A stretch of DNA of 64,000 nucleotides from a virus, in the IMG/VR virus record IMGVR_UViG_3300049489_000321, positions 1 to 64,000 of that record; one strand, written 5' to 3'. Numbering within the stretch: position 1 is the first letter of the stretch; each line of letters starts with the position of its first letter. Position numbers and translations under genes: made by a program. The notes beneath the pieces are model-generated. The model was not told the origin of the DNA. It saw nothing but the letters and a program-made list of their open reading frames with translations, and did not search any database. Below are positions 1 to 58,365 of this stretch, piece by piece.

Positions 1-170
<170 letters not shown>

Positions 171-249
171 GGAAAGCTAAGAATCGCGAATGCTACCAGT
201 TGGCACTCTATATCATCAATGATCAATAACAAAGAAAAGGATAATACTC

Positions 250-759: not shown

Positions 760-951
760 ATGCGTGACTCTGTTTGTTGGCCACCTATCCTCGCGTTTTT
801 TAACGGCAACGAATATAAGGCTACACTTTGGTTTGAAACGCCTAATCCGTTGCTAGGTGGAATTAAGCCTAAGCTTATGATTAGACTGGGTAAAGAGCGG
901 AAATTATTTGAAATTATCACCGCGCAATTACGCGAAAACCTAGCAGAATAA
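760..951 (+). CDS. Orphan Xre/MbcA/ParS antitoxin C-terminal (DUF2384-like) domain protein
   Basis: FFNGNEYKATLWFETPNPLLGGIKPKLMI matches the FG..A..WL..PN..LGG..P pattern. Confidence 0.7.
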   Translation: MRDSVCWPPILAFFNGNEYKATLWFETPNPLLGGIKPKLMIRLGKERKLFEIITAQLRENLAE

Positions 952-998
952 TTCTGTATAAAACTCTTAGCCACAAACCACTAACCAAAGGAAATACA

Positions 999-1538
999 GT
1001 GGAAAAGCTTAAGAATAAGACTACGGTTGACGAGCTTGCGGAAATGTTTAAGCTTACCTCTTGGGATGAGCTTGACGATGCTAATTTTGATTATTACTGG
1101 CAAAGTGCGCATGAAGCTATGGCGTATCGCGATTTTGAGAATGACGCCGAGCGTGAAGAGGAAATGTATCGCGTACAGGACTCGACTCGCGACGAGCTTT
1201 TCGCTAATTGGTATAACGCTGTCATGAGCGTTGCTGATACCATGTTTGGAAAGCTTGAGCTTGACTTGGTTCCTGTCAAGGTTAAGGGTAAGGTTTCTGA
1301 GTTTCCGTTTGAGTTTGTGATTAAGCCCCGTAAGAATTGGAAGCATTCTTGCGAGGAAATCGTCAATCTTATCAACGGTGTTGGCTACTTCTATTTCCGC
1401 GATGTTAACGCGCTGCTTTCTAGCGGACCTTACACGCCTATGCAGGCTGTTCTTAATCACCTTGGTTATGTTAACTACTACCACCAGATTTACGGTAGCG
1501 AAAGCCCTTCAAATCTCTATGATAGAGCTTTCCGGTAA
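999..1538 (+). CDS. Hypothetical early protein (acidic)
   Basis: 179 aa ORF, RBS AAGGA, downstream of promoter motif. Confidence 0.8.
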   Translation: MEKLKNKTTVDELAEMFKLTSWDELDDANFDYYWQSAHEAMAYRDFENDAEREEEMYRVQDSTRDELFANWYNAVMSVADTMFGKLELDLVPVKVKGKVSEFPFEFVIKPRKNWKHSCEEIVNLINGVGYFYFRDVNALLSSGPYTPMQAVLNHLGYVNYYHQIYGSESPSNLYDRAFR

Positions 1539-1578
1539 TTCTGTATTAGATTCCTAGCCATAGCCATAACGAGGGTTT

Positions 1579-1794
1579 ATGCGGAACGTTGAGATTATTT
1601 CCAAGTCTAAGCGAATTGACGGCATGCAGTATCTTGTCAAGGTGCCAGAAGCTAAGATTGTGTGCGGCTATGACTTGGTAACCGTATTCATTAGCCATAA
1701 CGGTATGCGGCATTTTAAGAGTGCTAACTGTAGTCGCACGACACCTTTTCATGCTGGCGCGGCGGTTACCAAGCATCTTGCTACAGGTGGATAA
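1579..1794 (+). CDS. Hypothetical protein
   Basis: GAGG RBS, follows promoter motif. Confidence 0.7.
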   Translation: MRNVEIISKSKRIDGMQYLVKVPEAKIVCGYDLVTVFISHNGMRHFKSANCSRTTPFHAGAAVTKHLATGG

Positions 1795-1796
1795 CA

Positions 1797-2186
1797 ATGC
1801 GTAATGATGATGTTAAGCCGAATTTTTGTCTGATTGCGATGGACGAAACCAAGTGGTATAATCTTGGCGACGATGCAGTGTGGATTAAGCAGATTGTCAA
1901 TACTTACGTGTACAACCAGAACGAGTATACATATTGTTGTGAAATGACTCCTAGTCATTGGCTTGAACCAGTTTACACTAGTATTGTCGTTAATGACGAT
2001 ACCCCTGATGATATTAGGGAAGATCTTTACGATAAGTACGGCAACACTTCCTATGAAGGCTGCTACATGCACGTTAGCGCCGTTAAGGCTCACGTGGAAA
2101 AGAATCCTAAGATGCACGATGTTTACGGTGAAGCCGAGTCTATTGACGATGCTAGGGAATATTACCAGGGCAATTACGTTCTATAA
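1797..2186 (+). CDS. Hypothetical protein
   Basis: 129 aa ORF tightly packed with neighbour. Confidence 0.75.
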   Translation: MRNDDVKPNFCLIAMDETKWYNLGDDAVWIKQIVNTYVYNQNEYTYCCEMTPSHWLEPVYTSIVVNDDTPDDIREDLYDKYGNTSYEGCYMHVSAVKAHVEKNPKMHDVYGEAESIDDAREYYQGNYVL

Positions 2187-2231
2187 TTCTGTGTAAACGT
2201 CTTAAGCGTAACTCTCACAAAGGTTGATGCG

Positions 2232-2714
2232 ATGGACAATCAGGTTACTCGATTTGCTTGGGAAATCCCTAACTTCGCGTGTTGGGATAAGCAGCTTACG
2301 GATCGCAATACTACTTGGGCCTTTGCTATGGTAGGCGGCGGTCACCGGGATATGACTAGCATCGATGCCAGTAACTTCGAAGTGATTAAGGATACACTCG
2401 CCAGAATGGATCCGGATAATCTTAGCCATAGATATAGTAGGGCTAGTCATTGGGCGGTAGGCTGGTACGAGCACCTGCTAGTGGATACCACTAACCATAA
2501 GGTTATGGCTTTCCTTAAGGAGTGTATTGATAATCTTGAGGATTATCCTATTCTTAGTGAGGATCACCATAGCCAATTGGAGTATGATTCACACTGTGAT
2601 AACCAGTGTTTCGCAGAATGCCCGTTTGAACATTGCGAGACTTGTCACGATTCCGTGCTAGAGAACGAAACCCATTGCGAATTGCATAAGGATGATGGTA
2701 ATGACGGTGAGTGA
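2232..2714 (+). CDS. Hypothetical phage protein with C-terminal Cys/His cluster
   Basis: 160 aa; SHWAVGWYEHLL and YPILSED motifs; follows promoter motif. Confidence 0.8.
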   Translation: MDNQVTRFAWEIPNFACWDKQLTDRNTTWAFAMVGGGHRDMTSIDASNFEVIKDTLARMDPDNLSHRYSRASHWAVGWYEHLLVDTTNHKVMAFLKECIDNLEDYPILSEDHHSQLEYDSHCDNQCFAECPFEHCETCHDSVLENETHCELHKDDGNDGE

Positions 2715-2925
2715 GCTTAAGGCTATCCTTGACCGGTATCCAGATAATATGCCTGTTACTATCAGGCAATATACCCACGATTATTGGAATACGGTACGCG
2801 CGGATAGTGTCGATACAGTTGAGATTGTAGATCGTAAGTGGTCTAATTATCACAGGAGTTTTGTTATTGTGGACGAGTGTGACGATCAGGACGATCCTAA
2901 ATCTACCGTGCTAATCATTAGATAA
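2701..2925 (+). CDS. Hypothetical phage protein
   Basis: MTVSELKAILDRYPDNMPV, a common small phage protein start. Confidence 0.75.
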   Translation: MTVSELKAILDRYPDNMPVTIRQYTHDYWNTVRADSVDTVEIVDRKWSNYHRSFVIVDECDDQDDPKSTVLIIR

Positions 2926-2932
2926 TAGTTTC

Positions 2933-3006
2933 GCGCTCGTGACATAATGGCATTGTGTACCGGTCTTTTAAACCGATTTACGTAGGTTCAATTCCTACCG
3001 AGCGCA
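2933..3006 (+). tRNA. tRNA-Lys(UUU)
   Basis: Acceptor GCGCTCG/CGAGCGC, D stem ACAT/GTGT, anticodon loop CTTTTAA, T arm GTAGG-TTCAATT-CCTAC; no encoded CCA. Confidence 0.85.
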
Positions 3007-3308
3007 CAATAACAAGGATCTGGCGGAAGTTAAGACTTTTGAGGATCCCGATACCTTTGCAGCCTATCACAAAGCGGAAACCTACGCGCATTCACTCGGT
3101 TACAGTGTCGGCCGAATGGCACGGGATTTGCCTATCGGCATTAAGCTCGCCGATAAAGATCTAGGCGATTGGGATATTGCTAAATGGCACAATCTTAGCA
3201 ATAACGATAAGCGTAACCTTGACGGATTGATCATCGGTGATAAGCGTAACGGGCCTGTTACGGTCCTAATCGGCCGGTGAATAATTTTGTGTAACGATCC
3301 ATTTTGCT

Positions 3309-3419
3309 CTAGGTAAACCCAAAAGGTTTATAAACTCACGGGACCTAACCCGTACCGCAACGGTAACTAACCTGAAAGGTTAGATAGAGATCGGAATTAA
3401 CCGATAGAGCCGATTTTAC
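3309..3419 (+). ncRNA. Multi-hairpin element copy 1 (candidate small RNA)
   Basis: Near-identical to 5682-5793; consecutive stem-loops; directly downstream of promoter motif. Confidence 0.5.
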
Positions 3420-3454
3420 CATAACCATTAACCATAACCATAACGAGGGATACA

Positions 3455-3856
3455 ATGGCCAAGCGTATTAAGGATCGAGAGCACGTTACCACGGTTACAT
3501 ATGCCGTGTTTTACGCTGCTAATCCCGAGGGATCTAGCGGCCTTATGTTTGACTGCGATGCTAGCGGTAACGTGGATCGCAGCAAGCTAAACCCTTGCGC
3601 GCGCGCCAATCTGGCGAAGATCGAACGCGGCGAAATCCCTTATGTTTACAGCGAGCTTACTACGCTGGAAACGTCTTACGTGGATCCGGCTGAAATCCTT
3701 TGCGATTGCGGTGATACTGTGGCACTATACGGATTCACCAATACTTGCGACTCTTGTAATCGCGATTACAATATGAGCGGCCAGGAGCTTGCCCCACGAT
3801 CGCAATGGGGCGAGGATACTGGCGAAACCCTTAGCGATATCCTACGGATCCGATAG
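3455..3856 (+). CDS. Hypothetical protein with C-terminal zinc-ribbon
   Basis: CDCG...CDSC motif; GAGG RBS. Confidence 0.8.
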   Translation: MAKRIKDREHVTTVTYAVFYAANPEGSSGLMFDCDASGNVDRSKLNPCARANLAKIERGEIPYVYSELTTLETSYVDPAEILCDCGDTVALYGFTNTCDSCNRDYNMSGQELAPRSQWGEDTGETLSDILRIR

Positions 3857-3894
3857 CGATCTGCTATCATCGTGATATCACTATGATCTAAACA

Positions 3895-3932
3895 TATCAA
3901 CAAGTTAGCAAAATAACGCTAACTTGTTGATA
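3895..3932. promoter_or_regulatory. Inverted pair of IHF consensus sites
   Basis: TATCAACAAGTTA at 3895 and its reverse complement at 3920, both exact WATCAANNNNTTR. Confidence 0.65.
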
Positions 3933-3993
3933 TTACTTGCGGATAATTCTGTGTAAACGTCTTAGGCGTAACCCGAACGAAAGGCAACCGACA

Positions 3994-4122
3994 ATGCACA
4001 ATTATACGTTCCGATATTGGGATAAGGATCTAAACACTTGGGTTTACGTTTACCGCGACATGGCAAACGATGGCCGATGGATTTATACTTATTCCGCTGG
4101 ATTCTTCAATAGTTTGCGTTAG
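3994..4122 (+). CDS. Small hypothetical protein
   Basis: Promoter motif + GAAAGGCAA leader then ATG. Confidence 0.55.
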   Translation: MHNYTFRYWDKDLNTWVYVYRDMANDGRWIYTYSAGFFNSLR

Positions 4123-4188
4123 AATAATTCTGTGTAAACGTCTTAATCGCTAGGCAACAAAAACAACACCTAGCAGAAAGCAAAAACA

Positions 4189-5157
4189 ATGGCCCACGAA
4201 ATTCTCGACAATAATTGCGTTTTTTCCCTTAAGACTGAGGTTTCCGGTGTCCCGTGGCACGGGATTGGTACGGGGCTCGACGTTGTAACCCCCGATGATG
4301 TTAAGACTTACGCGAGTTTCGACCGCGAGATCGTGCTTAAGGATCTCAAGCTCGCCGGATCGGATGATCTGATCGAGGGATACAAGGCGAGTTTCGATTC
4401 TAAGCATGGGAAAACTCTTGGTATTGTGTCTGATAAATTCGTACTCTTGCAGCCTAGGGATCTGCTTAGCGCGGCGGAATTCCTTATGAATTCAATGGGC
4501 GCCGAGATTTCGTGCGCTGCTACGATCCGCGAGGGTAAGCGCGAATTCCTCTCGCTCGCTATGCCGGATTCGACCGTGGAAGCGCGCGAGAACGATTCTA
4601 TCAAGCGTTATTTCAATTTGGCGCAGGGTCACGATGGATCGCTCGCTGTTAGCGCGGGATCGAGTGACGTTCGCGTGGTTTGCGCTAATACCCTTAGCGC
4701 TTGGATTAGCGAGAGGAATGCCGTCAAGATCCGTCACCGCGGCGATATTGGCAAGGCGCTCGCAACGGCCGTCGCTGCATTTGCTAGCGAAACTCAGTCT
4801 AGGACCGAGTTTTATCAGGCGCTGGCGGGTCGCGCGGTTACCCCGAGCGAAGTTATCGCGTACTACTCTGCTTTGACCGGTGAGGATTACGAGGATTTCC
4901 GCAAGGCAAAGCGTGGCCGTCCGTCGCTTGGCGCTAAGATCGCGGATCTTCTCGATTCACCGGCTAACGCGGACGGTATCATCTGGCAAGATGCGGGAAT
5001 GCCCGCCACCGCTTGGGATGCTTACAATGTCGCGACGCAAGTTATCACGCATGGCTCGACTAGTAAGGATCCGCTTAACAATCTGCTTTTTGGCACGGCG
5101 CATAAGTATCTGATTTCAGCTGAAAAGCTCGCCTCTGATATGTTTCTCGCCGAGTAA
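4189..5157 (+). CDS. DUF932 / TIGR03299-like phage-plasmid protein
   Basis: VPWHGIG, LGIVSDKF..LQP, HDGS...VRVVCANTL, IRH, TAWDAYN motifs. Confidence 0.9.
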   Translation: MAHEILDNNCVFSLKTEVSGVPWHGIGTGLDVVTPDDVKTYASFDREIVLKDLKLAGSDDLIEGYKASFDSKHGKTLGIVSDKFVLLQPRDLLSAAEFLMNSMGAEISCAATIREGKREFLSLAMPDSTVEARENDSIKRYFNLAQGHDGSLAVSAGSSDVRVVCANTLSAWISERNAVKIRHRGDIGKALATAVAAFASETQSRTEFYQALAGRAVTPSEVIAYYSALTGEDYEDFRKAKRGRPSLGAKIADLLDSPANADGIIWQDAGMPATAWDAYNVATQVITHGSTSKDPLNNLLFGTAHKYLISAEKLASDMFLAE

Positions 5158-5166
5158 CAAGAAATA

Positions 5167-5210
5167 CACAGGGTTAGATCGGGAAACTGGTCTAACCCTG
5201 TGATTTCTCT
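5167..5210 (+). terminator. Putative intrinsic terminator
   Basis: CACAGGGTTAGATC...GGTCTAACCCTGTG stem after DUF932 stop. Confidence 0.6.
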
Positions 5211-5326
5211 ACCATATGTCAAGCGGCGGGAATTCGGGCGGATGGCTCGATAACGCGATCTTTTGTTTACTCCTAATGATTACACTAGGTTACCTTTTGC
5301 GATAACTTTGTGATATACTCTTAAGC

Positions 5327-5515
5327 ATGAAACCTAAAACCTTCCTAGCTAGGCTGGCGGATTGTAGGGATACGCGAGAAATCAGCAACCTCGCGTCATA
5401 CGCTCACGAAAAGCAGATCGCAGCGATCCGCGCGGGTTACGAATCTAAGGATTGGCACGATTGTTGGAAGGCCGCTCACGCTAGCTGGAAATCGATCCTT
5501 ACTCAAGGTAGGTAG
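5327..5515 (+). CDS. Hypothetical protein, probably leaderless
   Basis: ATG 24 nt after start of promoter motif. Confidence 0.7.
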   Translation: MKPKTFLARLADCRDTREISNLASYAHEKQIAAIRAGYESKDWHDCWKAAHASWKSILTQGR

Positions 5516-5518
5516 ATC

Positions 5519-5653
5519 ATGGGAAAGCCTAAGAAAAACCGCAAGCGTAATTTTGACGCAATGAATGCGCTCGCGCGTAAACCTGCAACCTTCAAGGATC
5601 GTCGCGAGCCGCGTAAGCAGTCTAACAATTGGCGCAATCATTTGCCCGAGTAA
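5519..5653 (+). CDS. Small basic hypothetical protein (44 aa)
   Basis: MGKPKKNRKRNFDAMNALARK...; stop codon is the TAA of the next promoter motif. Confidence 0.6.
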   Translation: MGKPKKNRKRNFDAMNALARKPATFKDRREPRKQSNNWRNHLPE

Positions 5654-5681
5654 TTTTGTAGATTGTTCTTTAGCGAAAGCC

Positions 5682-5793
5682 CTAGGTAAACCCAAAAGGT
5701 TTACAAACTCACGGGACCTAACCCGTACCCACGGCGGTAACTAACCCAAAAGGTTAGATAGAGATCGGAGTTAACCGATAGGGCCGATTTTAC
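5682..5793 (+). ncRNA. Multi-hairpin element copy 2 (candidate small RNA)
   Basis: Direct repeat of 3309-3419, differences mostly in loops and linkers. Confidence 0.5.
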
Positions 5794-5835
5794 TAGTTCA
5801 AGGCGGAAATCATCAGAATGATTATGGAGTAACGT

Positions 5836-6312
5836 ATGCTGGCGGAATCTCTCAAAGACTGGCGAAAGGTAGCAGAACGCAATGAAATCAATGGGATCAA
5901 GCGTAGGGTTTATCTGGCGAATGCCACCGAACGATCTTGGCATGATAATTGCTTCGTTTTTTGGTTTGGCTCTTGCGGTACTACTTACGTCCTAGCCTAC
6001 GGTAAAGGCATTGATTCTGCTCTGGAATCCGCCGCGCAATGGTTAGCTGATTACGCTCCGGGGCATATAATGCCGCATGATTCCGAAGAATTGCAGGAAT
6101 TGCTTAGGGAAGCAAGGATCGAATTCCGTAAGGAAAATCAGCGTTTGGAAGATCCGGACCATGGATCCGAGGATATGTCACGGGTTTATGAGTCTGCTAC
6201 CGCCGATCTCACCTATACGGAATCAGGTTACCTCACGTCTTACGATTGGGGAATTGCGCTCGATAACCCTAACCCAGCGGAATTGCTAGATTTTGTAAAG
6301 GATAGGCGCTAA
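5836..6312 (+). CDS. Hypothetical protein
   Basis: 158 aa ORF, GGAG RBS. Confidence 0.8.
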   Translation: MLAESLKDWRKVAERNEINGIKRRVYLANATERSWHDNCFVFWFGSCGTTYVLAYGKGIDSALESAAQWLADYAPGHIMPHDSEELQELLREARIEFRKENQRLEDPDHGSEDMSRVYESATADLTYTESGYLTSYDWGIALDNPNPAELLDFVKDRR

Positions 6313-6528
6313 CGTGGTGATTTTGTTTACTGTCATTCTCGCGTGGTTTGTCGGATTCGCGATGCTCGCAATGGTTCGGACCTAGCGTTAGAACGCTATA
6401 GGCTGGCGTATGGGAAGCTTTTAGCGTCCTAGCGTGGATAGGGTATACCCGCGCCTTTCGCTGCTTAAATCGAAGCCTATCGCCTCGGATAATTTTGTGG
6501 GAAAGTCTTAGGCGAAAGGTAGGGAAAA

Positions 6529-6723
6529 ATGACGGTTACGACATTCTATCGAAAGCTCGAATTTTGCGATCGTTCTGATCTCGCTGATTTGCTTGACTAC
6601 GCTCGCGCTAAGCGTGGAAAATTGCTTAATAGCACGCTAAACCATACTAAAGATTGGAATCATCTAAAGGAATGGCATTTGGCATATAAGACTGTTTCCA
6701 ATCGAGTAGGATGGAAGCGGTAA
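6529..6723 (+). CDS. Hypothetical protein, weakly resembles 5327-5515
   Basis: Follows promoter motif; TF..KL..C......L..YA and KDW pattern shared. Confidence 0.7.
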   Translation: MTVTTFYRKLEFCDRSDLADLLDYARAKRGKLLNSTLNHTKDWNHLKEWHLAYKTVSNRVGWKR

Positions 6724-6809
6724 CTTTGTAGGAAAGTCTTAGTCGCATACGGCAAATAGCCGGCCAGTAGAAGCGGCGTAGGATGCAACCATAACAAAAG
6801 GCAAACACA

Positions 6810-6986
6810 GTGGACCATAAGAATACGGATCGAATGATGGATCGGGCAATGCATGCGATTTGCCCGAATGACTACGAAAGGTTCGCGCTTAGGCTGGCGT
6901 ATACTCAAGATCCTGAATTGGCCCTGGTATTTGCCGATCAGCCTATCCACGATCTTGCTGATATCCTTCGCGTTATCGGTGATTAA
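6810..6986 (+). CDS. Hypothetical protein (58 aa, GTG start)
   Basis: AAGGCAAA leader; TAATG overlap with next gene. Confidence 0.6.
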   Translation: MDHKNTDRMMDRAMHAICPNDYERFALRLAYTQDPELALVFADQPIHDLADILRVIGD

Positions 6987-7210
6987 TGCTTATTAACTGG
7001 ATTCCATGGAATGACGCGGACGACGCAACGGATCGCGTTGATTCCCTTGCTAAATCCGCTTCACAGATCCTGAGTGAAAATTGTGAAATGGCATACAGTT
7101 GGACCGGCGATACACTTGTAATTGCTACGAAACTCTCAAACGGTACAACCGAACTAATCCATTGCAAAGTAATTGCGGAAGGCAAGATTCATGCCAATGA
7201 TCATCATTAG
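6986..7210 (+). CDS. Hypothetical protein
   Basis: Translationally coupled ORF. Confidence 0.65.
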   Translation: MLINWIPWNDADDATDRVDSLAKSASQILSENCEMAYSWTGDTLVIATKLSNGTTELIHCKVIAEGKIHANDHH

Positions 7211-7592
7211 TCGGCCACCTAGCATGGCACAATTGTTGCTTGAGATCCTTGATAACCCGTGGGGCAAGGGCCGACATTCGGGGAATCCAGATTATCGCGC
7301 CTGCTATCTTCTCGAAACCATTGACAAAAACCGCGAGCGGGACCACGGGATCCCTCGCGTGTTTGAGTAGGAACAACGACAATGATTAAGCCAGTTTGCG
7401 CGGGTAATTGCCTATCTAATTGTAATTCCACGGAAGTATTCGCGATCGACTCAAAGGGTTATGTTTATTGCGAAAAGCATTTCTTTCGTGGTCGCAAAGT
7501 AACAAAAGCAGAGCGAAAGCAGCTAATTGCAGGAAAACCGATCCGATACGATAGATTTTGAGTAATTTTGTGGGAAAGCCTTAGGCGCAAAC

Positions 7593-8027
7593 GTGAAAGT
7601 ATGTATATCCTGCAAAGTATTAAAGAGTAAATCCAGTGATTTCTCTATCAATTCCCGTCGTAAAGACGGATACAATACCATATGCAAAGAATGTAAAAAT
7701 ACATACAACGTTGCCTGGTATCAGCGAAACAAAGACGAGCATAAAAAGCGTAATAGGATAAACAATAAAAAATACAAGGATTTAGCGTATTCAATTGTAC
7801 GGGAAAAGAAAAGCAAACCTTGTAAAGATTGTGGTATTAGCTATCCTTATTACGTTATGGATTTCGATCATTTGCCTGGATTCACGAAACAATTCTGTAT
7901 AGCTACGGCTATATCAAGAGGCCGCCCTATCTCATTGATTCTTAAAGAAATCGAGAAGTGCGACGTAGTGTGCGCTAATTGTCACAGGATTAGGACGTTT
8001 AACAGAACTAACATTGCTTCCACCTAA
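7593..8027 (+). CDS. HNH endonuclease
   Basis: CKDCG...MDFDH...EIEKCDVVCANCHRIRT; N-terminal CxxC pairs; AT-rich relative to flanks. Confidence 0.9.
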   Translation: MKVCISCKVLKSKSSDFSINSRRKDGYNTICKECKNTYNVAWYQRNKDEHKKRNRINNKKYKDLAYSIVREKKSKPCKDCGISYPYYVMDFDHLPGFTKQFCIATAISRGRPISLILKEIEKCDVVCANCHRIRTFNRTNIAST

Positions 8028-8083
8028 GGATAGGGTGCCGGCCTTCTAAGCCAGCTAGTAAGGTTCAATTCCTTATGGAAGCA
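8016..8083 (+). tRNA. tRNA-Arg(UCU), short D-arm region (possibly pseudo)
   Basis: Acceptor GCTTCCA/TGGAAGC, anticodon loop CTTCTAA, T arm TAAGG-TTCAATT-CCTTA; only 15 nt between acceptor and anticodon stems. Confidence 0.6.
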
Positions 8084-8433
8084 CTAACAGGACGCACTTA
8101 GGGATCGAGTCCTATCTAGTTGTAATAACAACGAAATCCCCGGATAGGTGCAAAGCCTATCGCATTTGAATAACTTTGTGAGATCGTCTTAACCGTAACC
8201 TGAAACGGAAGTCAAACGCAAGTGAAAAGCTCAAAAAATGACTTGATCGAGGCCCTTAGGGCAATCGCGGTTATGCAGCAAGCTTACGGATCGCAGGGTG
8301 ACGCCTACGTGGCCCGCGAATGTCACAGGATCGCGGTAGGCGCTTTGCACGACGGTTGGCACGGCGTATCGCGTAACATAAAGCGTTAATTAATACAGTT
8401 AAAAACGCAAATCTAAGCGAAAGGCAAACGAAA

Positions 8434-8616
8434 ATGGCACGTAAGAGTAAATGGGATCGCGCATTTGACGCTTGTTTCTATGCCAATTCCCACGGAGTCC
8501 AGTTTAACATTATGGATCTGTCAAAGCTCCGTCGCGCGGTTAATGACGCAACGCTTTCTGGCGTAGATCTTGAAAGCGCCGTCAAGGCGGCAATCCAGGT
8601 TTACAGGACTAATTAA
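8434..8616 (+). CDS. Hypothetical protein
   Basis: GAAAGGCAAA leader. Confidence 0.7.
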   Translation: MARKSKWDRAFDACFYANSHGVQFNIMDLSKLRRAVNDATLSGVDLESAVKAAIQVYRTN

Positions 8617-8619
8617 GCA

Positions 8620-8802
8620 ATGGAAAAGCCTAAGCCTAATCCTACTCCTAAGCAAGTGATCGACGCGATCACGCAAGCTTTCCCCAATGATTGCGAGCGT
8701 ATCCTTAGGGATATGCGATGGGATTCTATCAACGGCTGTTATATGTTTGATTTCGCTGGTATGTATGTCGGTTGCGAGCTTGACGGTTACATTCACTCTT
8801 AA
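8620..8802 (+). CDS. Hypothetical protein
   Basis: Packed ORF ending next to promoter motif. Confidence 0.7.
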   Translation: MEKPKPNPTPKQVIDAITQAFPNDCERILRDMRWDSINGCYMFDFAGMYVGCELDGYIHS

Positions 8803-8994
8803 TAATTTTGTGAGATCGTCTTAACCGTAACCCAAGCGGAAAGGCAAAGCCAAATGGAAGCCGTTAATATCTTTATCCTGGAAATGCTGTTTACCGCTAC
8901 CGTGGCGGCATTCCACACTAACCCCACGGAAGCTAACAATCGCGCGGTAGTCCAGGTGTTTACTACCCTTTACGCTATTCGCGGAGCTTAAACA

Positions 8995-9177
8995 ATGACC
9001 GATAGAGATAAGCAGATTAAGGAGCTTGAGCAATCCGGCCACCTTGATCCTAATTGCAGAGGATGTAAGGAGTTTTACGATCATCCCGATCTCAGGCCCT
9101 TTGCTCCATCCCATAAGGCTATGCAATCGTGCCAATCTGGCAAGCGTAATCATTGCACTTGCGACACTTGCTTCTAG
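8995..9177 (+). CDS. Cys-rich small hypothetical protein
   Basis: CxxC...PSH...C.SG..NHCTCDTCF. Confidence 0.75.
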   Translation: MTDRDKQIKELEQSGHLDPNCRGCKEFYDHPDLRPFAPSHKAMQSCQSGKRNHCTCDTCF

Positions 9178-9281
9178 CAAAAGGTATACCATAGTGGCCC
9201 ACCTAATCATCGGGATGATCCTGCTAGCGTTTATTCAGGCAAGAAACACTCCACCCTTTACCTAAGCCATAGGTATACCAA

Positions 9282-9476
9282 ATGCCCGATAACATTGCGT
9301 TTTACTACCGTGGAATGATAGAGCGGCCTTCAAAGCGTGGATATCGCTGGCATTACGGATATTCCGCGAATAGCGACGACGGTAATCCGCTTTACCCCTG
9401 GAATACGAAAGCAGAATGCAAGGCATATGCCAAGGCGCAAGGTAAGCAGGCTAGCTTTATCAGCGAGAAAGGCTAA
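9282..9476 (+). CDS. Hypothetical protein
   Basis: 64 aa ORF on operon strand. Confidence 0.7.
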   Translation: MPDNIAFYYRGMIERPSKRGYRWHYGYSANSDDGNPLYPWNTKAECKAYAKAQGKQASFISEKG

Positions 9477-9495
9477 CCGTAAGGAATCTAGCACG

Positions 9496-9660
9496 ATGGA
9501 TCAACGTACAAAGAATCGAATCAAAGAGCATGCCAAGTTAGGACACAAGCTAACAGAGTCGAAAGCATTGACTACCAGGCCAGGGCAAGCGTTTTTTAGG
9601 TGCGATTGCGGATGGTTAGGATGGTTGACAGTCAATTCCGCTGGTAAGTTAACCACTTAA
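9496..9660 (+). CDS. Small hypothetical protein (CxCGW)
   Basis: AAGGA RBS; GH...CDCGW. Confidence 0.6.
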   Translation: MDQRTKNRIKEHAKLGHKLTESKALTTRPGQAFFRCDCGWLGWLTVNSAGKLTT

Positions 9661-10079
9661 CACAATAACCAGTAAAAACAGTGGAAAACTAAACAATTAC
9701 TAGGAGTCCAGCACCCCCCGAGCTATAAGTACCGGAAATTATTATAGGTTGCAAAATTATGCCCGTGGTAAGCGTATGCAAGTCATGCGCCAGGCCTTGA
9801 CTCCCCGGACGCGGGGTAGGGTGCGAATCCCTTGGCGGGTCTCTTTGCAAATATTGTACCAATGGGATCGCTTGCCTGGTAGCGGGCTAGACGGGTCCGT
9901 TTCCCATGGTCCTGATACCGCGTAGAACGCGATAGGCTGCGATATGGGAAGCTTTCCAGGCATGGGGCTATCGTCGGCGTCTAGCTGGAATCCCTAGCCT
10001 ACAGGAGCGTAGGACGGTCCGATAACTTTGTGGGATGATCCTAGACGCAACCTGCAACGCTCCAACGGAAGGCAAAGCA

Positions 10080-10235
10080 ATGTCAAAGGTTCCTAGCAGC
10101 AAGATCCTCACCGCTAACGCGCGCCTGCATAAGCTTGAACTCAGGCTCGCGATTCTCACTAAGGAATGCCGCGAGATCCCTCCTACGCTCGCGCACGAAA
10201 TCCGCGTTGCGCGGCTGATGATGGTCGCTAAGTAA
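10080..10235 (+). CDS. Hypothetical protein
   Basis: Promoter motif + GGAAGGCAAA leader. Confidence 0.65.
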   Translation: MSKVPSSKILTANARLHKLELRLAILTKECREIPPTLAHEIRVARLMMVAK

Positions 10236-10379
10236 GCGGAACGATTAGACTATGCGTCGGGTGGCGCGGACCATCCTACAATGGACAGCGGTTATAACGC
10301 TTCCCCGACGCATAGTCCCTCACAAGTAATTCTGTGGGATCGTCCTAGGCGCAATCTCTCAAACGGAAGGCAAAGGCAA

Positions 10380-10568
10380 ATGACTACCAATCGCCGGATC
10401 TACATTCTTTGTCCTAACTGCAATCAGGATGCCATTCTTACCCCCGACGGGGCAATCGCTTGGCATGAAGGTACAAAAACTGCAATGTTGCCGGCGCCGC
10501 CTGCTAGCCGTTGCGCGGTTTCCGGCATGACTGAGAAAGCGGCGGATCGGCTGGTTTGGGGCAAGTAA
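10380..10568 (+). CDS. Hypothetical protein (CPNC)
   Basis: Promoter motif + leader. Confidence 0.65.
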   Translation: MTTNRRIYILCPNCNQDAILTPDGAIAWHEGTKTAMLPAPPASRCAVSGMTEKAADRLVWGK

Positions 10569-10881
10569 GCGGAATCACTAACCCTCCCCCGATTTGGGGG
10601 AGGGACGGGACTAGGGGTTTCAACGGGTTAGATCCCACGGATCGGTGGGGGAATGACTGCAAACGCTGGATTGTGTGAGATCGGGCGCTAAGCTTTCCGA
10701 TGATTTGCAGGCGATTTGGCGATTGCTGGCGAGCTTTTCCGGGGCTAATGGGCCGATGGTAGGGTCAAAAGATCGTCGCTCTGAAGCGAGCTAATCGATT
10801 CATGCAAGAATCGTGCCAAGTAGAGAGTAATTCTGTGGGATCGTCTTAGGTGTCCCGACGCTGAAACGAAAGGCAATCACT

Positions 10882-11088
10882 ATGGATTTCGATGATTTCT
10901 GTCGCATGCTGCTTAACCGTCGGAAGCTTAACGGTATGTCGAATGCGGATATCGCTCGCGATCTCAAGCTTGGCAACGATCACGCTCGGCAAATGGTTGT
11001 AAACATTATCGATATTCTCGATCTTCCGGTGCCGACGAGCAACGGTGAATCCATCCCGCCTGTATCCGGTGAAATCGATTGGCGTTAG
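10882..11088 (+). CDS. Small HTH-like hypothetical protein
   Basis: GMSNADIARDLKL. Confidence 0.6.
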   Translation: MDFDDFCRMLLNRRKLNGMSNADIARDLKLGNDHARQMVVNIIDILDLPVPTSNGESIPPVSGEIDWR

Positions 11089-11151
11089 GCGAGTAATTCT
11101 GTGAGATCGTCTTAGGCGCAACCTGCAACCTGCAACGGAAGGCAAAGACAA

Positions 11152-11412
11152 ATGGACAATATCATTCTCGCGCTCGCCACCGAGTATCGTCGCCAGTGTA
11201 AGATCGCTCACGGTTGGCGCGATTACAACGGTCGTTTGACCGGGATGGGGATGGACGCGGTGCGCAAGGCGGATAAGTGCCTGGATATGCTGCGCGCTTA
11301 CGGTTATCGTTTCGACTCGGAAGATAGCCTGTTTTTCGATCATAACCTCGCGGAATCGCTTGATATTCCAACGGTCCTGTGGCCGGAAGCGGCCGACGAT
11401 CAGGACGATTAA
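11152..11412 (+). CDS. Hypothetical protein
   Basis: Promoter motif + leader. Confidence 0.75.
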   Translation: MDNIILALATEYRRQCKIAHGWRDYNGRLTGMGMDAVRKADKCLDMLRAYGYRFDSEDSLFFDHNLAESLDIPTVLWPEAADDQDD

Positions 11413-11934
11413 CTAGCTGAAATCACTAACCCTCCCCCGATTTGGGGGAGGGTAACAAGCAAAGGGCATGCCAATGCGAGTCAACGCACTCGGCCAGTGT
11501 CACCCGGAATGCAGGTTCTGTGCCGTCGAATTTTGGGCCTGGTATAAGGCTAGGATGACACAAATGGCGCGACCTATGCCGGGTGCGCGTGAATCGTTCG
11601 CCGATGCGGCTGCTAGATCGGTGCGTCCTAAGCGATAGGCTGCGATTTGCGAGCGTTTCAGACAACGGACAGGGAAAGACTAGGGTACGGGTCCAGTGAC
11701 CTTCTACGCGAGGTAGGACGGTCCGATAATTCTGTGTAAACGTCCTAGGCGCAACCTGCAACGCTCCAACGGAAAGCGATAAAACAATGATCAAGGTACG
11801 CATTAATAGGATTGGCAATCTCTACGTTCTAGTTAACGCGGAAAATGGCTTTCCAGTGTCTACTCCTACGGATAATCTGCCCGCTGCAAAGGCTGCGCTT
11901 AGCAGGCTGATTTCGCAGGGAAAGGCTAAGTAAA

Positions 11935-12156
11935 ATGATTACTATTGAACGCAAAGGTAGAAGTGTGAGTGGCGGGCGCCTTTGGCACGTTTTTTGCGAC
12001 GGTGATCTCGTGGGGCACGTGGTTGAGCTTTCCGTATCTGAACCAATGTTTGGATCTGGCGCACCACTGTATGCGGTCCACGCGGATCGTGCAAACCCGG
12101 GCAGTTATGAGCTTGTGTCGGATTGGAGCGAAGTCCCATCCTATTTTAATCAGTAG
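11935..12156 (+). CDS. Hypothetical protein
   Basis: Coupled to small ORF 11787-11933. Confidence 0.65.
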   Translation: MITIERKGRSVSGGRLWHVFCDGDLVGHVVELSVSEPMFGSGAPLYAVHADRANPGSYELVSDWSEVPSYFNQ

Positions 12157-12471
12157 GTTAGCGGATCGTGCAAAGGCTAGAGCGTAGGCAAACCGTGGAA
12201 AACGCGATTTGCCTACACTAGTAATGTCGGGCGCTTACGCTTCAAACTCGCTACGCTCGCGCATTTTTCCCTAGGGATCGGGGAAAGGGTAGGGGCAAAC
12301 AAAAGGTGCTTAAATCGAAGCCTATCGCATCATGCAAGAAACATGCCAAGTAATGTCGAGTAGCTATTAGCTAGACTGTAGTGTTATAAGTAGGTATTAG
12401 GTGATGCAATCTGTATGCCAATGATTAGCCGATCTGCGGGCAGGCCCGCCGTTCGTCTCCTGCTGGAGTGA

Positions 12472-12493
12472 TTAGGACACTCTCACAAAGTTA
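12472..12493 (-). promoter_or_regulatory. Reverse-oriented copy of putative phage promoter motif
   Basis: Reverse complement TAACTTTGTGAGAGTGTCCTAA. Confidence 0.7.
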
Positions 12494-12567
12494 TTGGCAC
12501 GGATCGTGCTAAGGCACGTTTATTGCTAGGACACCCAATCGGATAACTTTGTATAAACGTCCTAGGC

Positions 12568-12702
12568 ATGACTCACTCAATCATCTGGAATCGTAACGGT
12601 TGGCAGGTCCTCACCACTTGCGGTGATCTTGAGGTTTCCGCTGCAATCTTCGATACTTACGGTGAGTGTCTTTCCTATTACGTTGAAATGATGGGAGCGT
12701 AA
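12568..12702 (+). CDS. Small leaderless hypothetical protein
   Basis: ATG 24 nt after motif start. Confidence 0.6.
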   Translation: MTHSIIWNRNGWQVLTTCGDLEVSAAIFDTYGECLSYYVEMMGA

Positions 12703-12703
12703 C

Positions 12704-12946
12704 ATGACGCATCATGCTAAGGTCGCGAGACTATTGAAGCTTCACCGAATGATTCGCGCTCGCGCGCATATCTGGCACGATAATTGCGAGAAGTACGCAG
12801 ATCCGCGCATGCCTCGAATGGATCGTTGGATGGAAGAATACGACAGCATGCGTCTTTGTAACGGAACCTACAGTGACGCTTGGCTCGAATATTGCGGGAT
12901 CACTAACGGTGCCGTGACGCATCATGCGGGCGATTTGCTTTCATAA
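12704..12946 (+). CDS. Hypothetical protein
   Basis: GGGAG RBS, coupled. Confidence 0.7.
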   Translation: MTHHAKVARLLKLHRMIRARAHIWHDNCEKYADPRMPRMDRWMEEYDSMRLCNGTYSDAWLEYCGITNGAVTHHAGDLLS

Positions 12947-12989
12947 ACTGTGCCGAGTAGCGGAATAATTCTGTATGGGAGTCTTTGAC

Positions 12990-13190
12990 ATGCACCACGC
13001 GAAACCCGAGGATTTCACTAGGTGGGCTGAAAAGGCCGCTTCTATGTCACTGGAATCATTGAATTGGTCTATCAATGATTGTTGGCAGGCTAGCCTTTGC
13101 GCTCGCGAAATTGGCAACGCAATTGCAGAGGGTAGATATCTAGACGAAATGTATGCATACGCTAGCGAGCGCAAGAATCGTGCCAAGTAG
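12990..13190 (+). CDS. Leaderless hypothetical protein
   Basis: ATG 24 nt after motif start; GRYLDEMYAYASE. Confidence 0.7.
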   Translation: MHHAKPEDFTRWAEKAASMSLESLNWSINDCWQASLCAREIGNAIAEGRYLDEMYAYASERKNRAK

Positions 13191-13248
13191 AGAGTAATTG
13201 TGTAGGCTAGTCTTAGTCACAAGCAACGCAAACCCCGGAGCTAAGACA

Positions 13249-13431
13249 ATGACGCTTTTCGAAGAGTTTGAGGATCGTTACGGTGATGAGCGTATCTCTG
13301 CGAAGGAAGCGATTAGGCTCTGTAAGTTTCATGGCACGGATATTGCCGAGTATCACAAGTATTCGGGATACACTGCTAAGTTGTCGGAATCATACGATTG
13401 GCAGGCAATCCTGATCTGGCTCGGTTACTAG
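13249..13431 (+). CDS. Hypothetical protein
   Basis: GGAG RBS; C-terminal ILIWLGY. Confidence 0.7.
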   Translation: MTLFEEFEDRYGDERISAKEAIRLCKFHGTDIAEYHKYSGYTAKLSESYDWQAILIWLGY

Positions 13432-13469
13432 CAACAAACGTACCAACTCAGAAAACAAGGAAAGTCACA

Positions 13470-13691
13470 ATGACTGTCGCTATTTACACGTTTGTTTGTA
13501 CGCTTGAAGATGGAATCCGTAAGGATCGTTTGAGTAACTTCGAAATGGCACTCTGTGCAAAGCACGTGCCAAAGAATGCTAAGCTTGCACGTCGCGCGCC
13601 AGATTGTCACTGTGAGCTTTGTACCTACAATGAAGATCGAGAGTGTAACAAGGGATTTGGCACGAATGATGAATATCACGGTGGTTGGTAA
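13470..13691 (+). CDS. Cys-containing hypothetical protein
   Basis: AAGGA RBS; stop is TAA of promoter motif. Confidence 0.65.
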   Translation: MTVAIYTFVCTLEDGIRKDRLSNFEMALCAKHVPKNAKLARRAPDCHCELCTYNEDRECNKGFGTNDEYHGGW

Positions 13692-13799
13692 TTTTGTAGG
13701 GAAGTCCTAGTCGCAACCTCTGAATCCCGACGAGTCGTCTAAGTAGGCTAAATCATTAACCCTCCCCCAAATCGGGGGAGGGTAGAAAGGCAAGCGTAA

Positions 13800-14018
13800 G
13801 TGCTCAAATTCACTAATGAAGAATGTAACAAGCTGGAAACACTCAAGCTTCTAGTTGACGCAGAGTGGCAAAATTTCGGAGGTTATCTTAGATACACGGA
13901 TGCTATGAATATTGTTGGGCTTTCTACGCTGAAGAAAGCTATCAAGCTGAATTTAATCGTCCATTTCAAGGGATCGGATTGGATCGATACTTGCTACACT
14001 AACAGACTGTACAAGTAG
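13800..14018 (+). CDS. Hypothetical protein
   Basis: GAAAGGCAA leader. Confidence 0.65.
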   Translation: MLKFTNEECNKLETLKLLVDAEWQNFGGYLRYTDAMNIVGLSTLKKAIKLNLIVHFKGSDWIDTCYTNRLYK

Positions 14019-14379
14019 TTGTAATTACATAAACGCTCTAGAATGACCTAGGAGCGACGATTTAGCAGGGTAGGCTAGTCTGCTAGGGTAGAGAGAAACC
14101 CGCTCCTACGTGAGCCTATAGCGTTATACGAGAGATCTAGTCAATCTTCCTGGTAGCAAAGGACTAAACCACTGTGATCAATGATTACAATACGTTGGAA
14201 GCCGTTAGGCATTTGCTCGTACTTGGCCCGATTGTTGCTTTGTCTGTCATACTCTTGACCGGAATCCTGTATCTGGCGATTCGCCAGTAAATACAATTAC
14301 TTAAGCTAAGTAGTTGAAAACACTTAGAGTAATTGTGTAGGCTAGTCCTAGGCGTACCCCCAACGAAAGGCAAACGCAA

Positions 14380-14643
14380 ATGACTAAGATCCTTAAGAAT
14401 GCCGGTGTACAGCTTATGGGCCGGTCGATTCGCGTGTTTGACCGCCAAACTAACAAGGATATCGCTGACTTCGACATGCCCGATGTCGATGATGAGACCC
14501 CCGATTGGATTTGTGATGCAAAATTCGATAGTTGGCTGATCAACGTGCAAAGGACTGTTAATTCAAAGGGTTACGACGTTACGACGGTGTACGCTGTTAA
14601 CTCGGATCGTCCTAACTCGCGTAAGATCATCGCAATCGGCTAA
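14380..14643 (+). CDS. Hypothetical protein
   Basis: Promoter motif + leader. Confidence 0.75.
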   Translation: MTKILKNAGVQLMGRSIRVFDRQTNKDIADFDMPDVDDETPDWICDAKFDSWLINVQRTVNSKGYDVTTVYAVNSDRPNSRKIIAIG

Positions 14644-14717
14644 CTAGTTGAAATGCCATGGTAGTAATTCTGTAGGGAAGTCTTAGGCGCAACCTCTCAC
14701 AAACGGAGAAAACGAAA

Positions 14718-14963: not shown

Positions 14964-15202
14964 GTACCTGATTTCCCATGGTGACGCTCCCTAGGCAACT
15001 AGGGAGCAACACCTGTTTTCAGGCACTTAGAAGTCTTTGCAGCCTGGTAGCAGGGGTCAAAAACGTCAAGATCCGCCCGATCCTACCGTAGCAATTACAC
15101 CATGGTAGGACCCTAATAGGCTACGCTCAAGCGATTTCCGCCCCGAGTAGCGTCCTAGCTAGGGTCAAAAGATCGTCGCTCTGAGAGCATCCTACGCATT
15201 CA

Positions 15203-15988
15203 AGCAATCCCTATGCCAATCCTCGATCTCTAGCACGTCTTATGCCAACCATGGTAGTACACTATCCTACACCCTACTACCTATTAGGTGGCACGACTCT
15301 TGCTAAGGCACGCTTATTGCTAGGACTACTGTGTTGGCATACTTGTTGCGAGCATCGAATCTGGTACGAATACTGCATATAGCACTACCATGGTACGGAT
15401 CTTGCATCAATACAGGCACTTGCAACAATCGTGCCAAACATACATGTATGCAAAAGACGTACCATGGTGACTGTTTGCAAGAATCATACCAACTATAGGA
15501 CGTGCAATAAGCATACCAGTCACAGCTATTGCAACATTTATGCCAATTATCAACGTATTGCAAGAATCGAGCCAAAAAAGACACACAGCAGTACGTGCAA
15601 ATTCTATGCCAACCCTACCATGGTGCAACATCTGTGCCAAAACAGGGGGTATGCAATAACAGGGCCACTACCATGGTAGGACACTATACTACACAGTAGG
15701 CACAACTCTTGCTAGTACGTACTAGTTGGCACGTATAGTGCTATAGGCATACATATTGCACACAATAACAGCATTTTGGCACGCTTATTGCTAAGGCACG
15801 AATGTTGCAACAAAGCTAATTTGGCACAGTACGTGCATACACTGGGTGGCACACCCCCTGCATACCCTACCATGCTGGCATCTCACTTGCATACGACCGA
15901 CATTCACCTACCCCACCCTAGTTCGCGTGGCACGTTTCTTGCATATCCACCCGTATCCCGTCTCAACCGAAGTGGCACGATACTTGCA
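15203..15988. repeat. Non-coding array of 26 sigma54 -24/-12 consensus sites (WGGYN-N7-TGC, GG-N10-GC)
   Basis: 16-mers at (-)15203,15232; (+)15289,15306,15335,15362,15391; (-)15421,15449,15476,15503,15530,15559,15596,15624,15652; (+)15698,15727,15745,15777,15794,15822,15847,15876,15928,15973. Confidence 0.9.
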
Positions 15989-16216
15989 CCATGAGCTATC
16001 TATCTGAAATTACAAGCACTGTGTGATTTCAACGAGTTGCTTTCCCGAGGAGTCCCACTTGTATAGTTTATAAATTTGTGAAACTTATTTTTTGATATTA
16101 TAAAGATTTCAAATACTTAGATGAATGAGGTAGTTTAGTGCTGTGTCTATAGCACTACTTCAGAACAGTAGTAGATTGGTTTTCGTATTTAGTTATTATA
16201 AAAAAATACGAAATAC

Positions 16217-57648: not shown

Positions 57649-58365
57649 ATGGAAAAGGCTAGAAAATTGTCACGTCGTATGGAATTTCAAGGACTTAATA
57701 TTTCCATCGAAACTGACAAAGGTGAAATTAGAGAATGGTTTGATACTAATTCCGGACAGTCTGGTAAGACTACCATGGTATACCCTTACGGGTATATTAC
57801 TGGTCTTAAAGAAAAAGGCGAAGACGGTGACTGTTTAGATTGTTTCGTTGGTCCTAATAAAGACGCTGAAGTTGTTTACGTTGTTAGACAGTTAAAGAAA
57901 CCAGAGTTTAAAGAATTTGATGAAGAAAAAGTTATGTTTGGTTTTGAAACAGAAAAAGAAGCCAAACAAGCTTATCTAGAACACTATGATGATAAGAGAT
58001 TTTTTGGGTCGATTTATTCTATGCCAATAGATGAATTTAAGTCTGAATTAGTAAAGTCCATGGGAAATCAACTTCCTATGGACCAAATGAAGCCTCAATT
58101 TACGTACGACATTGATCAACTTCCTAACGTTGAACACTGGTTAAACAGCGTTGGATCTTTAAAAGAAAAAGATATTTTAGGTCTTTGTGCTGAAATATGG
58201 GGACCAGGTTATTCTTTTATAAAGCTAAGTAAAACACACATTATTGCTGAGTTACGCGGATTTTTAAGAGATCAGCAGGAATTGTTGTTATTAGCACAAC
58301 CAGATGTAGTAGAATCTTCTGTCGATCCAGTAGCGGTGCCACATGCAGAACAACCTAATAATTAA
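57649..58365 (+). CDS. Inorganic pyrophosphatase-like (InPase) domain protein
   Basis: FQGLNISIE..KG..R, YPYGYI, DGDCLDCFVGP, FDEEKVMFGF. Confidence 0.82.
   Translation: MEKARKLSRRMEFQGLNISIETDKGEIREWFDTNSGQSGKTTMVYPYGYITGLKEKGEDGDCLDCFVGPNKDAEVVYVVRQLKKPEFKEFDEEKVMFGFETEKEAKQAYLEHYDDKRFFGSIYSMPIDEFKSELVKSMGNQLPMDQMKPQFTYDIDQLPNVEHWLNSVGSLKEKDILGLCAEIWGPGYSFIKLSKTHIIAELRGFLRDQQELLLLAQPDVVESSVDPVAVPHAEQPNN

Follow-up and report, generated by a model that had tools for sequence, protein, structure and literature searches.

Why would a phage spread near-perfect recognition sites for a bacterial RNA polymerase through its own small genes, on both strands and with little regard to where those genes begin? 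The question is raised by the viral contig IMGVR_UViG_3300049489_000321 from IMG/VR (147,530 bp), whose first 64 kb is the stretch analyzed here and is referred to as the window. Between 3 and 14.3 kb, the window carries scattered motifs of the -24/-12 type that is recognized by the sigma-54 polymerase, and a dense array of the same motif lies at 15203-15988. Among bacterial sigma factors, sigma-54 alone leaves polymerase parked on DNA without starting transcription. A preliminary description of this DNA listed 22 of the scattered sites, proposed that sigma-54 binding had been selected over the whole early segment, and considered a decoy function. We found that the scattered motifs are real, strongly non-random and under selection at the codon level, and that they are the graded, one-sided tail of the array rather than a property of the whole early segment. 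Below, we provide a putative role in which the sites would act through their occupancy by the host enzyme.

Enrichment of sigma-54-type sites

We defined a strict site as TGGCAC-N5-TTGC, in which GG and GC are fixed and at most one mismatch is allowed among the other six letters. This consensus was drawn from the literature and was not derived from the phage's own sites. The complete contig contains 48 strict sites, of which 24 lie in 3000-14300 and 21 in the array (15200-16000), and only three, at 33292, 38531 and 82219, are found in the remaining 135 kb. The strict density is therefore 2.1/kb in 3000-14300 compared with 0.022/kb in the remainder, a 96-fold difference (Poisson p ~5e-39). Dinucleotide-preserving shuffling of 3000-14300 (500 shuffles) produced a mean of 0.38 strict sites and a maximum of 3, which makes the observed excess approximately 60-fold, and the background in 1.4 Mb of unrelated phage DNA (Thg1-anchored loci) was 0.034 sites/kb. 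Additionally, when the loose pattern WGGY-N8-TGC was counted, as the preliminary description had proposed, 60 of the 125 genome-wide matches fell within 5-20 kb. The scattered-site region thus lies above the rest of the genome and, as described below, above the codon-shuffled expectation.

The GG-N10-GC spacing is exact in all 24 strict sites and in all array sites, and eight sites have kept a perfect core. Positions that were not seeded by the search also follow the sigma-54 consensus: T precedes TGG (frequency 0.61), GCA is followed by C or T (0.95) and then by G or A (0.90), T precedes TGC (0.82) and A or T follows it (0.81). The extended consensus YTGGCACG-N4-TTGCW is matched with its degenerate positions included, and ten positions agree with sigma-54. 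All 22 coordinates of the preliminary list carry the correctly spaced GG-N10-GC motif, and 21 of them are strict sites; 11510(-) has the motif but falls short of a strict match, with two mismatches and a position weight matrix (PWM) score of 10.3. Three strict sites were absent from that list, namely 10419-10434(-), 13430-13445(-) and 14224-14239(+).

A one-sided field

The array (15203-15988) holds 21 strict sites, or 25-26 by PWM, in both orientations. They are spaced 27-29 bp apart (~26/kb) and are arranged in blocks that alternate in direction. The array occupies the boundary between the small-gene block, on the plus strand, and the minus-strand block that follows (16-36 kb). Five of the scattered sites lie in 3-9 kb and 19 in 9-14.3 kb, and their density climbs toward the array (Spearman 0.66, p 0.04). 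No scattered strict sites were found to the right of the array, and the first ~20 kb of the block that carries the cassette promoters described below (130.8-147.5 kb plus 1-3 kb) contains none. The orientation of the scattered sites also changes in blocks: 4+/1- in 3-9 kb, 0+/6- in 9-11.8 kb and 8+/5- in 11.8-14.3 kb. Thus, although the proposed selection for the motif is upheld by the shuffles and by the unrelated flanks of the sites, the claim that it covers the whole early segment does not stand, as the sites are confined to the last 11 kb before the array.

Selection within coding sequence

Thirteen of the strict sites lie within called open reading frames (ORFs), eight in the sense and five in the antisense direction. 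The 24 ORFs concerned (5.7 kb) retained 4.25 +/- 1.34 sites after synonymous codons had been shuffled within each ORF (maximum 8 in 300 shuffles), the codon-preserving control suggested in the preliminary description, and 0.26 sites after the codon order had been shuffled. These numbers are not those of intragenic sites that arise by chance, and the excess over both shuffles indicates that amino acids and synonymous codons are both biased toward the motif. The frequent Trp-His reading that had been pointed out earlier is present: TGG is in frame as Trp in six of nine sense sites, four of which read W-H. Wherever the encoded peptide is W-x-x-x-C (5/5), the fourth codon ends in T and provides the T of TTGC.

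A protein motif W-H-x-x-C was also considered as the cause of the pattern and was rejected on three grounds: half of the sites lie antisense or outside coding sequence, the fourth codon of the W-x-x-x-C cases always ends in T, and the motif is missing from the homologues.

ORF 5836-6312, a real gene, has homologues among other phages, and its site falls in a variable stretch of the protein. Five homologues encode the corresponding codons differently and have no site; the homologues belong to unrelated high-GC phages that show neither site enrichment nor the cassette promoter. The site in this gene is therefore lineage-specific and was made in place by amino-acid changes. More generally, 23 of 28 sites have nothing in common beyond the 16-bp core, whereas five share flanks with another site. 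The unrelated flanks of these 23 imply that the sites arose independently.

Placement of the sites relative to genes

The strict sites are divided equally between the strands (12+/12-) in a block whose genes run on the plus strand, so that the upstream and co-oriented placement of promoters is not observed: half of the sites are antisense. Their density hardly differs between called ORFs (2.27/kb) and the DNA outside them (1.97/kb). No credible ORF was found downstream of the antisense sites, and two of 14 antisense sites lie at a real stop codon. An ORF led by a Shine-Dalgarno (SD) sequence begins at most 120 nt past the predicted start for a fraction of 0.13 of the sites, compared with 0.19 of random positions. 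Likewise, in 10 other phages, SD-led ORFs were no commoner after sites than after random positions. Since the sites are unlinked to strand, coding status and ORF starts, most of them cannot be gene promoters, and the earlier remark that many are antisense or within codons and cannot all serve as promoters holds on these counts.

A second motif, TAAYTYTGT-N7-TCYTAG, lies directly ahead of the ribosome-binding sites of the small genes. It occurs in 23 plus-strand copies in 949-14686 and in 10 more at 130855-147032 (33 in total). The minus strand has a single copy at 12472-12493, with one weak copy elsewhere in the genome. Seven copies have an ATG exactly 3 nt past the motif, the spacing expected for a fixed start site that would give leaderless mRNAs. 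Judging from this arrangement, the cassette motif, and not the sigma-54 sites, appears to be positioned to serve the small genes. In 1-16.5 kb, promoter matches of the sigma-70 type are rarer than in shuffles (14 compared with 26.3 +/- 5.5). Three of the sigma-54-type sites stand back to back with cassette promoters (10818/10828, 13185/13195 and 12495/12493), two of which represent one duplicated 46-nt module.

The same motif in other viruses

We scanned IMG/VR for two strong same-strand sites within ~50 bp and obtained at least 119 contigs, compared with approximately one estimated by chance. These contigs form at least 57 sequence-unrelated groups with GC contents of 33-64%. Among the matches listed, 31 groups had at least five sites, and, with the selecting pair left aside, sites occurred at 0.39/kb. 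Three tandem sites were found in at least 120 viral contigs compared with 20 stretches in 596 Gb of bacterial and archaeal genomes. Fields of several kb on both strands also occur in a number of these phages: one, L154, has 24 sites in 4.5 kb, and another, G002, has ~23 sites in 3 kb. In both, one edge of the field is dense and a tail extends to one side. In other phages the clusters often lie within a few kb of the large terminase gene (L093, L094, L107, L136 and related records; three terminase families in many unrelated groups).

No protein families common to this locus and the other site-rich phages were found. That unrelated viruses use one and the same specificity argues for a conserved host protein as the reader, namely sigma-54, and against a phage-specific binding protein. 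Therefore, we infer that the sites are read by the host sigma-54 polymerase. Profile searches of the phage contig with PF00158 (Sigma54_activat) and PF04552 (sigma-54 DNA-binding) gave no match, nor did a PF00158 search of 30 other site-rich phage records, six of which are at least 90% complete.

On the bacterial side, a contig of a Leptonemataceae metagenome-assembled genome (CBDHEM010000034.1, L308) has nine matches within 8 kb (3168-7624) at repeating intervals; this region may be a repeated element or a prophage.

A putative role through occupancy

The sigma-54 holoenzyme forms a stable closed complex on its sites and needs an AAA+ (ATP-driven) activator for opening (PMC4591121). That no canonical activator was found, together with the indifference of the sites to strand, coding and gene starts, argues for occupancy rather than mRNA production. 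Our proposal is that the sites are genuine, selected docking sites for the host sigma-54 polymerase that would act through occupancy, and we place about equal weight on its being right and its being wrong. The scattered sites and the 26-site array would together make up a single field, graded and one-sided, that covers the final 11 kb of the small-gene block, and the sites would most likely act by being occupied and not by making mRNA. Occupancy would keep the host enzyme in place on this part of the phage genome, in closed complexes. We infer both the persistence of such complexes and the effect of their occupancy.

Two consequences can be envisaged. First, the enzyme would be drained from the host's own sigma-54 genes. 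The locus has the composition of a sponge array, with many near-consensus sites that are uncoupled from a regulated gene and are predicted to be bound. Each phage genome carries ~45-50 near-consensus sites, whereas the whole E. coli genome has 135 mapped sites (PMC4591121), and a few genome copies could therefore hold much of the cell's sigma-54 polymerase. Second, bound polymerase would cause local obstruction or insulation, for example at the back-to-back sites of cassette promoters 10828, 13195 and 12493/12544; a barrier at the convergent junction and DNA handling during entry are further options. The decoy effect is thus supported as one possible consequence. A pure decoy could have been enlarged at no cost by lengthening the gene-free array, yet sites are present in coding DNA, which suggests that position matters. 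Sites in genes and the graded, one-sided shape both suggest that occupancy of this particular stretch matters.

Several points weigh against this proposal. The presence of rpoN in the host is an assumption. The contig is rated 86% complete, and an activator gene may have been missed or may be non-canonical. A pure sponge needs no sites inside genes, and sites that lie 17-29 bp apart cannot all hold holoenzyme simultaneously. Single intragenic sigma-54 sites in E. coli showed no roadblock effect (PMC4591121). Finally, some other phages, such as L154, have sites that mostly point in the direction of the genes that follow them and may be genuine promoters.

Nevertheless, the phage probably holds or traps the host sigma-54 enzyme, a use that we have not found described in the literature; our literature search returned nothing on arrays or fields of sigma-54 sites in phages. 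The phage pays for some of the sites with amino-acid and codon choices in its own genes, which would amount to a purposeful use of the parking property of sigma-54. If binding holds, a host transcription route would be taken over or disarmed by DNA sites alone, and the tight arrays that are common in viral contigs and almost absent from bacterial genomes would be explained. Predicted sigma-54 'promoters' in phage genomes need not be promoters, and their annotation calls for caution. We also offer a wider speculation, which we regard as tentative and somewhat doubtful: phages of many lineages may employ host sigma-54 polymerase, stalled and bound to DNA, as a building block. Here, the far end of the block would wear a graded 'coat' of closed complexes that would set the time at which the cassettes are shut off or insulated, or would pace DNA entry, and that would also strip the cell of sigma-54 and silence its sigma-54-dependent stress and repair responses. 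If true, this would be a host-factor capture system written in DNA only, without a phage protein.

Alternative explanations

The alternative that survives best holds that the sites are conditionally active sigma-54 promoters, fired by a host activator or by an unrecognized phage activator at a given time or host state. Antisense RNAs or head-on transcription would then shut the cassettes off, and the sense sites would add read-through transcripts. The sequences are indeed near-perfect promoters, and the six strict sites between 9.0 and 11.8 kb all lie antisense, as this model would have it. The tandem sites of L154, which lie upstream of and co-oriented with genes, fit it as well. Moreover, some intragenic sites of E. 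coli are true promoters with long leaders (PMC4591121), and phage YuA employs sigma-54 promoters. A short conserved hairpin with a T-run follows two of the antisense sites; however, the downstream hairpins fold no better than shuffles. The canonical activator was found neither in this phage nor in the 30 other site-rich records, the sites are unlinked to ORF starts, and overlapping doublets and a packing of 27-29 bp would be unusual for promoters. Matches to the integration host factor (IHF)-like consensus, at three in 13.3 kb compared with ~0.9 expected from the rest of the genome, are too few to count as a clear enrichment. We consider conditional promoters unlikely on balance, although they deserve serious attention.

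A promoter with an immediate terminator was a further candidate. It was rejected, because just two 5-bp stems were found, which fold no better than shuffles, and terminator-like sites are not enriched.

A function in DNA handling would use the bound polymerase as a graded brake, anchor or ratchet during genome entry, or as a barrier where plus-strand transcription or the replication fork meets the minus-strand block. We judge it improbable as the principal explanation. The one-sided gradient that ends in an array at a convergent junction is what such a function would call for, and so are the dense edge and one-sided tail in G002 and L154. The clusters of other phages near the large terminase, that is, near packaging sites or genome ends, and the lack of enrichment of intrinsic terminators in the small-gene block agree with it. 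However, the present contig most likely closes through a (GCT)n repeat, its large terminase gene (TerL) at 121 kb is distant from the site field (41 kb away), and in E. coli transcription was able to pass single sigma-54 sites (PMC4591121).

It is quite unlikely that a phage-encoded DNA-binding protein reads the motif in the manner of an iteron, centromere or packaging site, with its likeness to sigma-54 sites being coincidence or mimicry. A dense array with scattered copies in two orientations is the layout of iterons, parS and DnaA boxes, and the motif can also be read as a direct repeat, TKGCA, with 11-bp spacing that would suit tandem winged-helix binding; in addition, the phage has many uncharacterized, orphan small proteins. 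However, ten positions, including degenerate ones, match sigma-54, and the consensus is identical in at least 57 unrelated groups that span GC 33-64% and have no common protein family. A lineage-specific element would not show this distribution, and one specificity across such distances is not expected of phage-specific proteins.

Finally, that array units were spread as functionless debris by duplication or recombination is very hard to credit, for although density drops with distance from the array and 5 of 28 sites lie in duplicated modules common to the array or to each other, 23 of 28 sites are alike in the 16-bp core alone, sites in ORFs exceed the synonymous-codon expectation threefold, the site in 5836-6312 was created in place by amino-acid changes, and eight sites have retained a perfect core.

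Relation to known systems

E. coli has many silent intragenic sigma-54 sites among the 135 mapped in 4.6 Mb, or ~0.03/kb (Bonocora et al. 2015, PMC4591121). The phage sites resemble these in having the same -24/-12 motif, in being intragenic in many cases and in occurring in both orientations. At the silent E. coli sites, the bound polymerase is transcriptionally inactive, and a decoy role has been discussed there too (PMC4591121). In contrast, the phage field reaches 2.1/kb, and 26/kb in the array, is nearer the consensus, is restricted to one 13-kb stretch, and comes from a genome in which no canonical activator was found.

Pseudomonas phage YuA likewise has host sigma-54 recognition sites on its genome; according to a preprint that cites the original work, its sigma-54 promoters serve the particle-formation and lysis region and depend on rpoN (Ceyssens et al. 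2008, cited in bioRxiv 10.1101/2023.10.13.562163). Whereas YuA, as portrayed in that account, has a few promoter-placed sites, there are dozens here, half of them antisense and many within genes, and the genes carry a different promoter-like motif.

With promoters of the glnAp2, pspA and nifH type, the phage sites share the GG-N10-GC spacing and the extended consensus TGGCACG-N4-TTGCW. Such promoters precede the operon toward which they point, and they are accompanied by an activator and by activator sites farther upstream. Unlike them, the phage sites show no gene-linked co-orientation and no canonical activator was found, and no search was aimed at enhancer-like upstream elements.

The host-takeover module of Bacillus phage SPO1 reportedly has strong host-polymerase promoters (sigma-A) clustered among small early genes, which they drive. 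The present phage is similar in its SPO1-like head module (portal ~40%) and in having small orphan genes in cassettes that are dense in host-polymerase-type sites, but the sites here are of the sigma-54 type and do not drive the genes. The iterons of P1 incA and the E. coli datA locus provide many high-affinity sites that soak up the replicon's own initiator. By analogy, the phage has many sites that are uncoupled from the control of adjacent genes, and titration is what we propose for it. Unlike in incA and datA, the presumed target would be a host sigma factor, and sites are also found in coding sequence.

Individual sites

The leftmost scattered sites, 3117-3132(+), with a perfect core, and 3185-3200(+), with one mismatch, lie in the sense direction just past a tRNA-Lys gene, in a doubtful 54-aa ORF. 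The sense site 5938-5953(+) within the real gene 5836-6312 reads W-H-D-N-C and is the one absent from the five homologues in other phages. Site 7181-7196(-), 11 nt ahead of the stop of ORF 6986-7210, forms a divergent back-to-back pair with 7225-7240(+). An antisense run follows at 9417-9432, 9777-9792 and 9846-9861 (all minus) in weakly coding DNA without a credible minus-strand ORF downstream, with 9176-9191(-) and 9520-9535(-) as weaker members, and 10419-10434(-) lies antisense within ORF 10380-10568.

The best site of the genome, at 10803(-), has a perfect core and a PWM score of 24.8, and stands back to back with cassette promoter 10828 at a distance of 10 nt. The 46-nt module that contains it (10803-10849) is duplicated at 13171-13216 with 91% identity. 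Antisense site 11458-11473(-) adjoins the GGGGGAGGG hairpin at 11429-11453, and the weak site 11510-11525(-) is close by. Within ORF 11935-12156, the sense site 11983-11998(+) reads W-H-V-F-C and has a perfect core.

A gene-free hub (12333-12527) comprises the antisense sites 12333-12348(-) and 12405-12420(-) and the overlapping doublet 12495-12510(+) and 12512-12527(+), which lies between the minus-strand cassette promoter 12472-12493 and the forward promoter 12544. The doublet module recurs within the array at 15289 and 15777. ORF 12704-12946 has two sense sites, one at 12773(+) and one ending at 12896(+) (W-H-D-N-C and W-L-E-Y-C). ORF 12990-13190 contains the sense site 13112-13127(+) and the antisense site 13170-13185(-), whose end is 2 nt short of the stop codon and which is separated from cassette promoter 13195 by 10 nt. 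The remaining sites are 13332-13347(+) within ORF 13249-13431, 13430-13445(-), 13556-13571(-) within ORF 13470-13691, and 14224-14239(+), the final scattered site ahead of the array.

In and beside the array (window 15099-15680), the palindrome ACCATGGT occurs in six copies, once in the full form CTACCATGGTAG, and the genome has only two copies elsewhere. The palindrome coincides in part with TGGTAC variants of the sigma-54 sites and might be bound by a second protein.

The phage genome and other elements of the small-gene block

The contig encodes a sheath, baseplate, terminase, DNA polymerase, helicase and ribonucleotide reductase, as well as a portal protein that is ~40% identical to the portals of SPO1-like Bacillus phages. 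No match or close relative was found by megablast of the region against cultured phages. A portal protein search of IMG/VR found no relative, and a search with the cassette-promoter pattern matched no other viral contig. When the early proteins and the large unassigned proteins were compared with PHROG and Pfam, DUF932 was the sole match.

A (GCT)n-rich coding repeat is present at both contig ends (window 1-180; genome 147330-147530). The contig most likely closes on itself, the assembly having broken inside a low-complexity (GCT)n repeat gene, and closure would make the small orphan genes one continuous block from ~131 kb through the junction to 15 kb. The record is rated linear, with its completeness of 86%, despite the matching (GCT)n ends.

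Searches of the phage proteins found no phage RNA polymerase and no clear sigma factor, and sigma-70 region 2 gave no match. A search for T7-type RNA polymerases had no match in the phage, but control genomes matched nothing either, so this negative carries no weight. The transcription-machinery search returned two sub-threshold helix-turn-helix matches. Among the head genes, the 942-aa ORF 58343-61171 has no PHROG or Pfam match and may be a virion-carried polymerase.

Several further elements recur in the small-gene block. A multi-hairpin element of ~115 nt is duplicated at 3306-3419 and 5679-5793 with 93-96% identity; the copies lie in the leaders of genes 3455-3856 and 5836-6312, the second directly after cassette promoter 5651. 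A perfect hairpin, ACCCTCCCCC-loop-GGGGGAGGGT, is present three times (10581-10604, 11429-11453 and 13759-13783), twice just past ORF stops and once in a 5' leader, and no copy is followed by a T-run. Between the cassettes, an element of ~30 nt with GCGATAGGCT occurs in both orientations at 6386-6422, 6460-6483, 9920-9956, 11623-11659, 12302-12328 and 14096-14128, and twice it adjoins a cassette promoter or an antisense sigma-54 site.

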